Source: Shigella phage vB_SboS_Gloob. Taken from it: a stretch of DNA of 64,000 bases. Below are positions 15,173 to 61,931 of this stretch, in pieces. Under the pieces are notes generated by a model, which had not been told where the DNA came from, searched no databases, and saw nothing but the letters and a program-made list of their open reading frames with translations. The stretch lies in the sequence record OL615011. The stretch is one strand, 5' to 3'. Position 1 is the stretch's first letter; each line of letters starts with the position of its first letter. The translations under genes were made by a program, and so were the position numbers.

Positions 15173-15196
15173 TCCCGCTTCGGCGGGATTTTTATT
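15172..15196 (+). terminator. rho-independent terminator
   Basis: ATCCCGC-TTCG-GCGGGAT hairpin followed by TTTTATT. Confidence 0.6.
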
Positions 15197-15491
15197 GGCT
15201 TAACTGTAAAACAGGTTAACGCGTGCTCTCTTTACCTGAAATTGTTATAATGGGCCTGTTCCTGAGTCATTTGTTGGGGATCGTCTATTTTGAATCAGAT
15301 TGTCAGTAAAATACCATTTTTCAAGGAGTGTTCTGAGGTGTACAGTTATTGCCTCGCTCTTATGCCTCCATGGCATTGGAATGGTGCTGCCTGCATAAGG
15401 CGGTGTGATGAGCGAAGCGAATAGGATCGAATAACAAATAAAATGAACGGAAGCAGAGCTTCCTATAGTATATAAGGCAAAATCCGCTGCG

Positions 15492-15499
15492 CATAAATA
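15492..15499 (+). promoter_or_regulatory. near-consensus late promoter CATAAATA upstream of gp5
   Basis: One mismatch to TATAAATA, 35 nt upstream of gp5 ATG. Confidence 0.3.
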
Positions 15500-15533
15500 C
15501 CTTCAAATCCTTGTTTGACAACCGGAATTCACT

Positions 15534-28916: not shown

Positions 28917-28920
28917 CAAA

Positions 28921-28940
28921 AACCCCGCCGAAGCGGGGTT
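28921..28940. terminator. bidirectional terminator between convergent IP genes
   Basis: AACCCCGC-CGAA-GCGGGGTT flanked by A-run and T-run. Confidence 0.65.
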
Positions 28941-28944
28941 TCTT

Positions 28945-47308: not shown

Positions 47309-47367
47309 GATATAGTCTCTTGGTTTCAAATGGGCGGGGTAATCATACCCCGCCGGAGTTTATAGAA

Positions 47368-47613
47368 TTAGCTGATGTGCTTCAGAAGAGCGAAGAGGAT
47401 CGCGGCCTTGGCTTTCACCTTGCCGACGACGCCTGTCTCAACATCGACTTCTTCAGCAACCCACTCTTTGCCCTTCTTGCTGATGATAACGTCACGGCGC
47501 TGGGCATATACCTCTTTGGTCGCGTACACGCGGCGGAACCCTTTGGCGCGGAGTAGTCCCCAATTGCGGTCAATTTCTACGGAGGTTTCGACCATTTTGT
47601 TCTTATTTGACAT
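47368..47613 (-). CDS. hypothetical protein
   Basis: 81 aa ORF. Confidence 0.4.
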   Translation of the reverse strand: MSNKNKMVETSVEIDRNWGLLRAKGFRRVYATKEVYAQRRDVIISKKGKEWVAEEVDVETGVVGKVKAKAAILFALLKHIS

Positions 47614-47791
47614 CTGTGACCTCGATCACGTTAGCAACGTTGCGCCAGAATTCACGTCCTTCGGAATCAACGACCAAAATTTGTTTGTTGCTGCGAGCCT
47701 TAACTGTCAGGACAGGAGCAGTTCCGAACTCACCTACCCATTTGGTTTCTTTTACTTTCGATCCAGACATGATCATAATGTAATCCTTCAT
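47603..47791 (-). CDS. hypothetical protein
   Basis: 62 aa ORF. Confidence 0.35.
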   Translation of the reverse strand: MKDYIMIMSGSKVKETKWVGEFGTAPVLTVKARSNKQILVVDSEGREFWRNVANVIEVTDVK

Positions 47792-50512: not shown

Positions 50513-50678
50513 CAGCGGCTTCGATGCGCGCCTTTACAGAGTCCAGCATATTGTTGATAAACTCACGAGACTGCTCCAGCTGAGCCAAGAGCACATCCTT
50601 TGGAGCATAGTTCTGAATGCAAGCCGGAATACTTTCAGACGTCGCCTTCAGGTCGGTAAAACATTCTTTCAGTACCAT
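50463..50678 (-). CDS. hypothetical protein
   Basis: 71 aa ORF. Confidence 0.35.
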   Translation of the reverse strand: MVLKECFTDLKATSESIPACIQNYAPKDVLLAQLEQSREFINNMLDSVKARIEAADESELNPYAKGEENND

Positions 50679-58554: not shown

Positions 58555-59019
58555 TTATTCGCTTTTGGCCTTTGTAGGCCGGATAATGTATTTTGGGACC
58601 AGCTTCCATTCAGGAACCTGATCGTGTTTAACCACTTTAATGCGTGACATATCGGCGGCTTCGGTGACCTGCTCGGGGTGAATGACCTTCACCATGTTCC
58701 ACTGCTCAAGCAGCTTGATGATGCGGTTCATCCTCAGGACATCTTCGCGGTTAAACCCGTTGTAATGCCCGTCCAGCATAAACAGATGCTTGAAGTGGAC
58801 GATATAATACTTGCCATACTTATGAAGAATATGACAAGTCTGATACAGAGTATTCGGCTCTTGGCGCGTGTTTACCCCAATTCGGCTCAGTGTTTCCTTG
58901 ATCCCCAGGAATATTCCTGGCCGATCTTGGTTCAATTGAACTTCAACCATACAATCAACGATGCTGGCCTCATCGTTGACGGCTGAAATGTTCAATATGT
59001 CTAGCGTATTGCGCGCCAT
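58555..59019 (-). CDS. regA: translational repressor RegA
   Basis: LYQTCHILHKYGKYYIVHFKHLFMLDG and EWKLVPKYIIRP match T4 RegA. Confidence 0.85.
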   Translation of the reverse strand: MARNTLDILNISAVNDEASIVDCMVEVQLNQDRPGIFLGIKETLSRIGVNTRQEPNTLYQTCHILHKYGKYYIVHFKHLFMLDGHYNGFNREDVLRMNRIIKLLEQWNMVKVIHPEQVTEAADMSRIKVVKHDQVPEWKLVPKYIIRPTKAKSE

Positions 59020-59475: not shown

Positions 59476-60519
59476 TCACTTCCACTTGATGTTGAGCATG
59501 ACGTTTGTCAGGAAAAACACAGCATGCAGCCAGACATCGCCGACCTGACGGTGTTCAATCTGAGACTGACCACATACGCATACCAGATCAGGGATAGACT
59601 CATTCTGAACCAGCATCGGCTTCTCTTTATCCTGTGGTACACAGAACTGGAAGAAGCGGGAATAGAAGTCTTCGGTGATGTAGTTCTGGTTGTCAGTCAC
59701 CCACTGCTTCATGCCAGCCCAGTCATTGCCTTTCAGCATATCAACCAACACACCCATGTCGGCAGATTTCAATACGGCGAGGGCGCGTTCATCGATCTTG
59801 CCGTAGGTGGTGACGTTATCCTGTAGGGCACCCATGATGCGGCGGTTATCGGGGAAATGACGTTTGACAATAGCAGCCAACACAGGAGGGTCATACTCAA
59901 CACCTTCGCTGCGAAGGATTTCAGCACAGCGGCGCATGAACTGAAGTTTTACCTCATCAGCCTCGGTCTCATTCCAGATAAAGTCGATTTCACGACAACG
60001 AGAACGCAAAGGTTCGTTCACGCGCTGCTTGGCGTTGGTGGTCAGGATGAACGAGCAGTTCTTGGAGACCTTCTCCACAATACCCTTCAGCGACTCCTGT
60101 GCCGCCATAGACAGACGCTCTACTTCGTCGAGGATAACGACTTTGCGACCACCGAATACACTCACACCAGTAGAGTACTGAATCACGCGGTCACGGATAA
60201 CGTCGATGCTGTTGTCCAGGGATGCGTTGATCATCAGTGGTTGCTTACAGCCGATTTCATTACACACGGCCAGGGCAGAGGTAGTCTTGCCAGTACCAGG
60301 CTGAGGGGAGTAGAACAGCATAGACGGGATGTTGCCGTTGCCGCTGGTAATGTAGCCATGGATTTTAGCGCGGACGTCTTGAGGGATGATGATCTCGTCC
60401 AGGTTGTCAGGGCGGTACTTGTTTTCCCATGCGTACTGGTCGGAAACGATAGTGATATTAGACATTTCAGCCTCGTGTAGAAGAATCATTTCAAATGGGC
60501 GGGAAACCCCCGCCCACAC
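59476..60519 (-). CDS. 44: clamp loader large subunit gp44 (AAA+ RFC-like)
   Basis: Walker A PQPGTGKTT, Walker B ILDEVE, sensor motifs; likely start MSNITIV. Confidence 0.9.
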   Translation of the reverse strand: MWAGVSRPFEMILLHEAEMSNITIVSDQYAWENKYRPDNLDEIIIPQDVRAKIHGYITSGNGNIPSMLFYSPQPGTGKTTSALAVCNEIGCKQPLMINASLDNSIDVIRDRVIQYSTGVSVFGGRKVVILDEVERLSMAAQESLKGIVEKVSKNCSFILTTNAKQRVNEPLRSRCREIDFIWNETEADEVKLQFMRRCAEILRSEGVEYDPPVLAAIVKRHFPDNRRIMGALQDNVTTYGKIDERALAVLKSADMGVLVDMLKGNDWAGMKQWVTDNQNYITEDFYSRFFQFCVPQDKEKPMLVQNESIPDLVCVCGQSQIEHRQVGDVWLHAVFFLTNVMLNIKWK

Positions 60520-60544
60520 ATTATAACATCAGGCTGGAGATTGA

Positions 60545-61213
60545 TTACTCAATCTGTGCGCCGACGAAGTAATTGATCGTCGCGTCGGATGATTGGAAGT
60601 TCACCATCTGCAGCTCAGCGCAGGCACGCAGAGTGTAGTTGCCTTCGATCATCTTCAGGTTAGCAACGTCCAGTGGCATGACGAAGTCCGGCAGCGCGGT
60701 TTCACCCAGCTCAACGGTGTAGTTGTTGGAGTTGTCCAGGGTAGTGGTGGTTGCAACCAGGCGAGTTTTGCCACCCTGAGCAACCAGGCGCACAGTCTTG
60801 TGACCGAGGGTAGAACAGGCGCGGGTCAGTTCTTTCATCTTCTCTGGAGTGATGATCGCTTCAAAGTCGACAGACGGCAGTTCAATGGTGTCAGCCGGAA
60901 CAACAGTGAGTTCTTTAGCAGAACGCCAGAATTGCAGCTGAGAGCTTTCGCCTTTCAACAGGATGTAGTCCTGATGGAATTCGGCTTTACCGCCTTTGAA
61001 GGAAGGCAGGCGCTGGATGGCCAGAAGTTTGGTCAGGTCCAGGATAGGGAACTCAAACGGGAAGTCTTCTTCGATCTGAGCCACGGCGATAACAGTAGAC
61101 GAATCGTTAATGCTGCGCAGCATCTTACCCGGTGTCAGAACGATAGATGGGTTGATGGTCTCAAAGTTGGCCAGCAACTGGAGTGTACGTTCGGAGAGAG
61201 TGATCTCTTGCAT
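60545..61213 (-). CDS. 45: sliding clamp gp45
   Basis: 222 aa; size and N-terminal similarity to T4 gp45; adjacency to gp44/62. Confidence 0.8.
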   Translation of the reverse strand: MQEITLSERTLQLLANFETINPSIVLTPGKMLRSINDSSTVIAVAQIEEDFPFEFPILDLTKLLAIQRLPSFKGGKAEFHQDYILLKGESSQLQFWRSAKELTVVPADTIELPSVDFEAIITPEKMKELTRACSTLGHKTVRLVAQGGKTRLVATTTTLDNSNNYTVELGETALPDFVMPLDVANLKMIEGNYTLRACAELQMVNFQSSDATINYFVGAQIE

Positions 61214-61319
61214 TTATGTATCCTCAAAATATAGTGGGGTTCAAGTCATGTTTGACGCAATCTAGTATCGCTGTGTTGTGCTTATAGAACAAGTGGCAAA
61301 TTGCGCTACGCGTTATTAA

Positions 61320-61337
61320 TAAATGCCTTCGGCATTT
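61320..61337. other. perfect hairpin in AT-rich divergent intergenic region
   Basis: AAATGCC-TTC-GGCATTT within 340-bp non-coding region. Confidence 0.35.
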
Positions 61338-61394
61338 ATGGACTTTATTAAAGATAATAACCTTTATTAATCCTATTCGCTTCGCTCATAAAAC

Positions 61395-61428
61395 AAATAC
61401 TCGTTGTTCGTTAACACTCACAACTCGT
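61395..61428 (+). promoter_or_regulatory. sigma70-like promoter (TTGTTC, 18 nt spacer, TATAAT)
   Basis: Upstream of plus-strand ORF at 61554. Confidence 0.3.
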
Positions 61429-61553
61429 ATAATACCACGCCATTTGTTCAACAGGAAAGCAATTTTTATTCAACAGCAAAATTAATTTATTTGGTCTAAA
61501 CATGCACGCGAAATAATATGTATGTCATGTTAACCAACACACGAGAGTAATAT

Positions 61554-61931
61554 ATGAAACAGTTCGTAGGATTATATGCGGTCGGATGCAGTAAGCCAGA
61601 CGCCATCCTCACCGCAGGGCAATTTGTCACAGGCACCCCAGTTTATCTGGCGCAGCTGGCGTCAGACAAGAACTTACCATCGGAGCCGCGATTTGTCCCT
61701 CTGGGTTTGATGGCAGGCCTGAAAGTTGGTCTGTATGTCGGTGTGGTGACGTTTGAAAACGGCGTCGAAGCGAAGGTTCTGCCATTTAAATTGGGCAGCG
61801 AACAAATGCTGAAGGACACTATCAGTGAACACCTGAACGCACAATGTCTGGTTTCTCTGGACAAATTGTTCGGCACAGTATCTGATGAAGGCGAGGCCAC
61901 CCCCGCCTATGTGAATCAAGATCAGTCGTGA
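61554..61931 (+). CDS. hypothetical protein
   Basis: 125 aa plus-strand ORF between gp45 and uvsW. Confidence 0.45.
   Translation: MKQFVGLYAVGCSKPDAILTAGQFVTGTPVYLAQLASDKNLPSEPRFVPLGLMAGLKVGLYVGVVTFENGVEAKVLPFKLGSEQMLKDTISEHLNAQCLVSLDKLFGTVSDEGEATPAYVNQDQS

Follow-up and report, generated by a model that had tools for sequence, protein, structure and literature searches.

What does the AT-rich, noncoding DNA between the sliding clamp gene gp45 and the oppositely oriented orf141 do in Shigella phage vB_SboS_Gloob (OL615011)? The question arises from a stretch of 64,000 nucleotides of this phage (the window, whose coordinates are used throughout unless another genome is named), in which this gap (61214-61553) carries a hairpin, repeats, and promoter-like sequences. 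Judged by its sequence, the phage is a ViI-like Agtrevirus (Ackermannviridae), 99% identical to Shigella phage Ag3, and not T4. A 3-kb query around the region matches 264 Ackermannviridae records in all, with Shigella phages MK-13 and Ag3 and Salmonella phage P46FS4 as the best matches (99.1%). The strong conservation of the gap across genera, as read from the alignments, is the main new result. With moderate confidence, we regard the gap as a strongly constrained divergent promoter/leader control region of the Ackermannviridae replication-gene cluster, and our confidence in the promoter part alone is higher than that in the whole model.

Conservation of the gap between gp45 and orf141

The gap consists of 340 noncoding bases with exact coordinates, and it is bordered by the following two genes.

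60545-61213, minus strand: gp45, the sliding clamp gene (phrog_223, E=1.8e-64; Gp45, orf00165, in the Ag3 annotation)
61554-61931, plus strand: orf141, 125 amino acids (phrog_4255, function unknown; the Ag3 homologue is orf00166, hypothetical protein)

The first-pass annotation described an AT-rich divergent intergenic region of 340 bp, and this description is borne out. The flanking open reading frames (ORFs) lie on opposite strands, and the G+C content of the region is 34%, compared with 50.7% for the window. In the 158-kb genome of Ag3, the region is the most AT-rich stretch at lengths of both 200 bp (30% G+C) and 340 bp (34.1% G+C), and it is among the least stable 100-bp stretches.

A 371-base query matches 274 records, 270 of which cover the query almost fully. 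Between Kuttervirus and the window, the identity of the intergenic region is 78.6-80.6%, that of the gp45 coding sequence is 77.5-77.7%, and that of the third codon positions of gp45 is 55-56%, while orf141 is identical at 55-56% of its nucleotides and 41-44% of its amino acids. The corresponding values for Taipeivirus are 71% (intergenic), 75.5-75.7% (gp45), 49-50% (third codon positions), and 54% and 37-39% (nucleotides and amino acids of orf141). Six metagenomic relatives were found as contigs through their orf141 homologues, scans of IMG/VR having given almost only known isolates. In these relatives, the gap is 80-97% identical to that of the window, gp45 81-90%, and orf141 58-67%; in one contig (L046), the values are 97.4%, 90.4%, and 60.8% (48% in amino acids), respectively. 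The length of the gap is 341-345 bp in all six metagenomic relatives and 323-361 bp across the named phages. The longest one, in Escherichia phage ZQ1 (361 bp versus 340 bp), is 21 bp longer than that in the window, about two helical turns.

The conservation map, which is based on 12 aligned sequences from four or more genera, divides the gap into distinct parts. Block A (61214-61295) is almost invariant. Conservation is lowest in the center (61296-61371), where the hairpin and the repeats lie. It is high again in blocks B and C (61372-61502), which are nearly invariant and are followed by a variable stretch, a conserved ATAATAT, and the start of orf141. No ORF is conserved across the aligned sequences, and a hidden small protein gene was rejected as an explanation, since the ORFs in the gap differ between clades in frame, start, and length; the small coding sequences annotated in Mooltan and SeKF_19 are not conserved, either. 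A search of the region against Rfam 15 at E<=10 gave two chance-level hits only, and none was found in the whole window; a tRNA search also found none. Conservation in the absence of an ORF or a known RNA indicates strong purifying selection on the DNA itself, at about the level of the clamp gene. With regard to RNA structure, covariation is uninformative, with double changes in only 4 of the 54 predicted pairs, as the blocks are too invariant. The first-pass annotation had made its proposal depend on conservation in relatives; since the region is strongly conserved there, this ground for abandoning the proposal falls away.

The neighboring orf141 shows a different pattern. Its amino-acid identity between genera is only 37-44%. 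The two ends of the protein, MKQFVGLYAVG and EGEATPAYVNQ, are invariant, and the middle diverges fast. Such a pattern between stretches of conserved DNA looks like cassette-style exchange or diversifying selection. The protein has no Pfam match, and its structural model (predicted local distance difference test, pLDDT, 81.5) has no match in PDB and matches only its own family among viral models. The label "clamp loader subunit" given to orf141 in several Kuttervirus records is apparently an annotation error. In Serratia phage 3M (Miltonvirus, NC_048736), the homologue is a 118-amino-acid ORF (L006 1297-1653) ending in ...ATPAYVNQ, of which the record annotates just a 34-amino-acid coding sequence (1549-1653).

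Promoter-like sites and the predicted gp45 leader

A sigma70 weight-matrix scan was applied to every aligned sequence (n=13), and the matches were mapped to alignment columns. Four sigma70-like sites are conserved in position. They are listed here together with the predicted leader of gp45 and a direct repeat.

61264-61292, minus strand: Pm1, candidate sigma70 promoter for gp45; TTGTTC (61292-61287), 17-nt spacer, GATACT (61269-61264)
61404-61433, plus strand: Pp1, candidate sigma70 promoter facing orf141; TTGTTC, 18-nt spacer, TATAAT (61428-61433)
61491-61519, plus strand: Pp2, candidate sigma70 promoter for orf141; TTGGTC (61491-61496), 17-nt spacer, TAATAT (61514-61519)
61208-61235, plus strand: promoter-like site TTGCAT-N16-TATAGT, the weakest candidate; found in 11 of 13 sequences, spacer 16-18 nt
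61214-61257, minus strand: predicted 5' leader of the gp45 mRNA, 44 nt; Shine-Dalgarno sequence GAGGAT (61225-61220)
61443-61480, plus strand: direct repeat TTTGTTCAACAGGAAA / TTTATTCAACAGCAAA (spacing, 22 bp), with an A/T tract between it and Pp2

Both hexamers of Pm1 are identical in 12 of the 13 sequences, and its 17-nt spacer differs in sequence but never in length. Pp1 is found in the same column in all 13 sequences, with TTGTTC or TTGCTC as the -35 box and a spacer of 17 or 18 nt. Changes in its -10 box are confined to the fourth and fifth positions, the two least important ones (TATAAT, TATACT, TATATT, or TATAGT), except for AATAGT in the outlier 3M. Pp2 is in position in 11 of the 13 sequences with a -10 box of TAATAT or TATTAT, about 35 nt upstream of the ATG codon of orf141. 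Hexamers spaced by 16-18 bp, conservation of both the hexamers and the spacer length, and drift of the spacer sequence are thus all found. Spacer drift combined with changes at weak -10 positions is the pattern expected of functional sigma70 promoters, from which we infer that transcription starts at these sites. Pm1, Pp1, and Pp2 score 6.5-8.6 bits in the window and up to 10.1 bits in the relatives. Conservation of the TTGCAT site is uninformative, because the site overlaps the start codon and the leader of gp45 on the other strand; its RNA, if the site is active, would run into the hairpin described below. The first copy of the direct repeat is nearly invariant, and the repeat may serve Pp2 as an UP element or activator site, or may belong to the leader of the Pp1 transcript. 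A sigma70-like promoter had been claimed in the first-pass annotation. This claim holds in that several conserved sites are present, but not for the only promoter that a consensus scanner reports within the gap, TCGGCA-18-GATAAT (61329-61358), which is not conserved.

The predicted 44-nt leader of gp45 is identical at nearly every base in the 12 sequences of the conservation map. It ends in ...UUUUGAGGAUACAUAAAUG and is A/U-rich around the AUG codon. The operators of RegA in T4 are likewise A+U-rich and overlap the AUG codon (PMC3014915). Since regA also belongs to the cluster, lying four genes downstream of gp45 in Ag3, the leader is a candidate RegA operator, a reasonable assignment by analogy with T4. 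In Ag3, a set of small minus-strand genes has an identical translation-start context, a purine-rich Shine-Dalgarno sequence and then CTATATCATG, at eight gene starts, including those at 50595, 76046, 79442, 79741, 80122, 100472, and 143521. The same CTATAT is found upstream of the Shine-Dalgarno sequence in the gp45 leader (61232-61237, minus strand). The upstream regions of Ag3 are also enriched genome-wide for an early-type motif, (G)TTTACTTCTTCAATAA(C), followed after 6-8 nt by TATAAT or TATACT; this motif lies upstream of at least six small early genes, for example at Ag3 79794-79821, 100.2 kb, and 143.6 kb.

In Ag3, gp44, gp62, and regA lie downstream of gp45, and the genes past orf00166 are, in order, uvsW, an exonuclease gene, uvsY, and gp3, all on the minus strand; orf141 is a lone plus-strand gene within a long minus-strand run. 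A further feature lies downstream of gp45.

About 60495-60519, between gp45 and gp44: G+C-rich terminator downstream of gp45 (Torf165, Table S2 of PMC3121705; sequence checked)

With its own G+C-rich terminator downstream, gp45 looks like a separate transcription unit. Within 60490-60525 on the minus strand, TATAAT immediately precedes this terminator, GGGCGGGGGTTTCCCGCCC, and a putative promoter is annotated in the gap between gp45 and gp44 of Dickeya phage LIMEstone1; signals for termination and re-initiation seem to be interleaved there.

The first-pass annotation drew a parallel with gene 45 of T4, which reportedly has multiple promoters (a finding attributed to Hsu and Karam, 1990). The two phages share the gene order 45-44-62-regA on one strand, and by this analogy the clamp gene would be expected to need its own promoters, as in T4. 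The parallel does not extend further, being an analogy that is functional at best. The gap upstream of T4 gene 45 is 55 bp long and the neighbor, rpbA, is on the same strand, whereas that of the present phage is 340 bp long and divergent with an unrelated gene as the neighbor, and no sequence homology was found between the gap and the region upstream of T4 gene 45. Neither motA nor asiA is annotated in Ag3 (a statement on the annotation only, as no dedicated homology search was run), and T4-style middle promoters are therefore not expected.

Published annotations of relatives differ on the gap. The homologous gap in LIMEstone1 (HE600015), 95% identical, is annotated with a "putative middle promoter" and a "putative promoter" (PMC3296691), while the paper on Ag3 predicts no promoter or terminator in the gap (PMC3121705). 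The LIMEstone1 boxes were picked for their resemblance to T4 consensus sequences. One of them falls on motif M (see below) and AATACT; its counterpart, at about 61513-61518, is on the minus strand. Neither lies at one of the sites that are conserved in position. We take the annotation of promoter signals in the gap as an independent hint for promoters.

The hairpin, the repeats, and motif M

The central part of the gap and its right-hand border contain the following elements, one of which has a second copy elsewhere in the window.

61319-61339, both strands: perfect 9-bp hairpin, ATAAATGCC-TTC-GGCATTTAT
61343-61370: 1.5 copies of a 19-bp unit, CTTTATTAAAGATAATAAC, which holds TTATTA/TAATAA inverted repeats
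61369-61364, minus strand: Pm2, possible -10 box TAATAA, within the stretch of the 19-bp unit
61370-61389, minus strand: motif M, ATCCTATTCGCTTCGCTCAT (minus-strand reading ATGAGCGAAGCGAATAGGAT), core conserved in all clades
15408-15427, plus strand: second copy of motif M, inverted, in a 361-bp noncoding region upstream of the baseplate hub gene gp5

The perfect hairpin of the first-pass annotation is present, though with a stem of 9 bp and not 7 bp as was claimed. The calculated energies for the plus and minus strands are -9.3 and -8.8 kcal/mol (z-scores of -1.3 and -1.8, respectively), and dinucleotide shuffling of the region gives a hairpin this good in only 1.4% of cases. Aglimvirinae, Kuttervirus, and five metagenomic lineages all share an identical stem, the loop being TTC or TGAC. 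The change of the loop between 3 and 4 nt with the stem unchanged fits a folded structure better than a rigid site on duplex DNA for a dimer. Vibrio phages D494 and K476 have a stem of the form (A)CAAATGGC-NNN-GCCATTTG(T) upstream of gp45, namely CAAATGGC-TGC-GCCATTTG in D494 and ACAAATGGC-GTC-GCCATTTGT in K476. Compared with AAATGCC/GGCATTT, the middle pair is swapped on both arms, which, on comparison of the sequences, is a compensatory change across a large distance; gp45 of D494 and K476 is only 35-36% identical. The order in these two phages is uvsW, a strong terminator, the hairpin, TAATAA/TTATTA inverted repeats, TTGGTC-N17-TATAAT, and gp45. Because both lack orf141, the hairpin and the repeats appear to belong with the region upstream of gp45 and not with orf141.

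The hairpin can be compared with the terminators of the phage itself. The window contains seven perfect hairpins of at least 9 bp, compared with 1.3 expected. The other six are flanked by A-tracts and T-tracts; five have G+C-rich cores and are intergenic, as terminators are, and the sixth (58955-58979) is inside the ORF of regA. In layout, the hairpin agrees with the bidirectional terminators of the phage, for example AAACCCCGC-CGAA-GCGGGGTTT (28920-28941), which consist of an A-tract, a palindromic core, and a T-tract in an intergenic position, with a loop of 3-4 nt (Table S2 of PMC3121705). The hairpin differs from them in having 3 G-C pairs versus 6-8, in its energy of -9 versus -10.4 to -22.9 kcal/mol, and in being located between divergent promoter candidates and not after genes. 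Every listed terminator of Ag3 is stronger, and so are the window's other six hairpins. The scanner classifies the hairpin as terminator-like on the plus strand, where the stem is followed by GGACTTTATT, which it accepts; the corresponding sequence on the minus strand is TAATAACGCG. The Kuttervirus counterparts are AGTATTCTGTTTT on the plus strand and TTATCGCGCG on the minus strand. The genes orf141 and uvsW are arranged tail to tail, with an overlap of 10 nt at their 3' ends, and no stem-loop was found between them, so the hairpin is the first structure that minus-strand read-through from uvsW would meet. The hairpin is most likely a weak two-way terminator or insulator, an assignment we make with low confidence.

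Several TTATTAAT-like repeats had also been noted in the first-pass annotation, and the count agrees with it. TTATTA/TAATAA occurs five times in the gap (61313, 61317, 61345, 61355, and 61364) versus 0.97 expected (P=0.003), accounting for 5 of the 14 copies in the 64-kb window. These copies belong to the 19-bp unit CTTTATTAAAGATAATAAC, which is found in 2.5 copies in Escherichia phage ZQ1 (L007 947-993). TAATAA/TTATTA inverted repeats flank the hairpin also in Kuttervirus and Vibrio phage D494.

The core of motif M, GAGCGAAGCGA, is conserved in all clades, with the middle A of GAA as the sole variable base. In the 158-kb genome of Ag3, the 20-mer has exactly two copies. Read toward gp45 and gp5, the motif is atGAGCGAAGCGAatag at both loci in Aglimvirinae, acGAGC..AGCGAgtag at both loci in Kuttervirus, and acGAGC..GCGAgttg at both loci in Taipeivirus. 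Since the flanks of the core differ between the three clades and match between the two loci within a clade, gene conversion or a shared trans-acting factor is suggested. The region upstream of gp5 (15173-15533; Ag3 47357-47717) is noncoding and 71-74% identical across genera. Next to the second copy of motif M there lies a block, CTTATGCCTCCATGGCATTGGAATGGTGCTGCCTGCATAAG, that is nearly invariant and contains nested inverted repeats. The region has no Rfam match; it may encode a structured RNA or be a further control region. Another similarity between the gap and this region (GGCAAATTGCGCTACGC... versus GGCAAAATCCGCTGCGC...) was dismissed, since about 0.4 chance matches are expected and it is absent in Kuttervirus.

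GCGTAGC and GCGAAGC (GCGNAGC) flank the hairpin on the minus strand at 61305-61311 and 61379-61385. The oligonucleotide d(GCGAAGC) forms a stable DNA mini-hairpin with a G-N-A triloop. Such a triloop fits motif M, which has GAA, GTA, or GGA depending on the clade, and the minus-strand loops of the main hairpin (GAA and GTCA). The idea was nonetheless rejected, as it is broken by the loop of K476 (GTC/GAC), and GCGAAGC is not enriched, with 21 copies in the genome versus about 19 expected; it serves only as a remark on motif M.

Competing explanations and the replication-origin question

In the model of a divergent control region, host sigma70 RNA polymerase would start leftward at Pm1 to give the clamp mRNA, whose invariant A/U-rich leader probably carries translational control, as by RegA in T4. 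Tandem Pp1 and Pp2 would drive orf141 rightward. The 75-bp center (30% G+C) with the hairpin, the TTATTA/TAATAA repeats, and motif M would separate the two promoter sets, and the hairpin would damp transcription entering from either side, namely read-through from uvsW on the minus strand and transcripts from antisense starts on the other strand. All three of these central elements are conserved; the hairpin could act as a weak terminator, as a protein site, or as part of an origin.

Several observations weigh against this model. Constraint extends to about 240 of the 340 bases, which exceeds what three or four promoters plus a leader require, and motif M and its concerted change are left unexplained. 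In all four -35 boxes, the agreement with TTGACA is limited to TTG, which explains why the simple consensus scanner did not report the conserved sites. The plus-strand "spacers" of Miltonvirus 3M are both 5 nt longer, and the promoters are thus altered there. Taipeivirus and Miltonvirus are without the hairpin; Taipeivirus carries an unrelated weak A/T palindrome (-2.8 kcal/mol) instead. As a terminator, the hairpin would rely on only 3 G-C pairs and about -9 kcal/mol, a proper U-run is missing from both strands, and the list of Ag3 terminators, which stops at -10.4 kcal/mol, omits it (PMC3121705). In the Vibrio phages, termination at the hairpin would be redundant, because a strong terminator follows uvsW about 40 nt before it. 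The literature searched holds no transcription start map and no start or termination data for any Ackermannviridae phage.

A less likely alternative is that the arms of the hairpin, together with motif M and the TTATTA/TAATAA repeats, are operators on duplex DNA through which one or more DNA-binding proteins of the phage or the host co-regulate the divergent promoters, with motif M linking the control of gp45 to the gp5 locus. The sequence of the stem, and not just its pairing, is invariant in the enteric clades, and the arms of the Vibrio stems change together. The restriction of motif M to two copies with clade-specific matching flanks is as expected from co-evolution with a trans-acting factor or from gene conversion, the repeats are enriched at the P value given above, and the Ag3 genome has genes for two HU/histone-like proteins and for two proteins annotated as transcriptional regulators. 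On the other hand, the distance between the half-sites shifts by 1 bp (3-nt versus 4-nt loop), a change that is poorly tolerated by most proteins that bind as dimers, and no binding protein was identified. The product of orf141 is without a DNA-binding fold, the Vibrio phages have the hairpin but lack orf141, and the gp5 copy of motif M is degenerate in Kuttervirus and Taipeivirus. In a further reading, the region encodes a small noncoding RNA, for example a plus-strand RNA of about 65-100 nt that runs from TTGCAT-N16-TATAGT or TTCAAG-N17-TAGTAT to the hairpin, antisense to the promoter and leader of gp45. We consider such an RNA quite improbable. Plus-strand promoter-like sites upstream of the hairpin are in position in 10-11 of the 13 sequences, the hairpin is terminator-like on this strand, and the block between them is invariant; but this conservation is fully explained by the promoter and leader of gp45 on the other strand, there is no Rfam match and no covariation, as the block hardly varies, the spacer of the best site ranges over 16-18 nt, and the terminator is weak. 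Finally, the arms could be back-to-back late promoter boxes of the T4 type, ATAAATG, for late transcription of gp45 and orf141. The clamp is needed late in T4-type phages, and the predicted late promoter of gp5 in Ag3, CATAAATACC, can be set beside the minus-strand arm, CATAAATGCC. The late box for which the upstream regions of Ag3 are enriched is (C)TAAATA, which differs from the T4 box TATAAATA and usually lies 21-42 nt ahead of the starts of structural genes. In the phage, TAAATA sits 21-64 nt before the ATG codon (most 21-42 nt). The two arms have G as their last base, are separated from the start codons by 105-215 nt, and come 111th and 200th when all matches in the genome are ranked; the sequence of the Vibrio arms is ACAAATGG. 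No exact TAAATA is found in the gap, including the distance of 20-65 nt upstream of a start at which a T4-type late promoter lies. With no exact box, low ranks of the arms, and different arms in the Vibrio phages, we reject this explanation as highly unlikely.

The first-pass annotation also raised the possibility that the region is a replication origin. An origin, either a T4-type one based on an R-loop or one based on the 19-bp repeat and the hairpin, would be compatible with promoter function, yet we judge it unlikely. In T4, oriF (at uvsY) and oriG (at gene 34) each combine a middle promoter with a DNA-unwinding element downstream of it, in which an R-loop is held; origin R-loops are removed by UvsW. 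The gap resembles oriF and oriG in that promoter-like sites are directly followed by the most AT-rich DNA, with uvsW and uvsY nearby; it differs from them in that no MotA-dependent promoter is expected and the AT-rich DNA is conserved base by base. Its exceptional AT-richness over 200-340 bp of the Ag3 genome, the constraint on more bases than promoters need, and the near-fixed length speak for an origin. So do the variation in the copy number of the 19-bp unit (1.5 versus 2.5), as is seen with iterons, the recurrence of the hairpin and the TAATAA/TTATTA repeats upstream of gp45 in Vibrio phages without orf141, the DNA of 27-30% G+C that follows each of Pp1 and the possible Pm2, and the replication-gene neighbors (clamp, clamp loader, uvsW, and uvsY). 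Against these, an unwinding element needs AT-richness and not base-by-base conservation, a single repeat of 1.5 copies is a thin basis for iterons, Ag3 has no annotated initiator gene or MotA/AsiA, and the literature searched contains no origin study for Ackermannviridae. Cumulative GC skew, which the first-pass annotation had suggested as a check, was calculated for the complete Ag3 genome. Its maximum at about 23 kb and minimum at about 135 kb are two large strand switches, and no inflection is seen at 93.7-94.1 kb, the position of the region, although this is a weak test for a T4-type replicon since the skew follows the direction of transcription. We see a limited chance that the gap is the first identifiable Ackermannviridae origin, a transcription-activated one in which divergent promoters would flank an unwinding element with the conserved hairpin and the iteron-like 19-bp repeats, and a factor binding to motif M would also act upstream of gp5.

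For the family, the analysis gives a base-resolution definition of the best-conserved noncoding element found in the Ackermannviridae replication module, provides positions of candidate clamp-gene promoters in a testable form, and flags the hairpin, the 19-bp repeat, and motif M as unexplained cis elements. ViI-like phages of this family are widely isolated for the control of Salmonella, Escherichia coli O157, Shigella, Klebsiella, and Dickeya. If the gap is only a promoter region, it would be an ordinary feature under unusual constraint. If it is a true origin, it would be the first mapped replication start of Ackermannviridae and a useful part for phage engineering.

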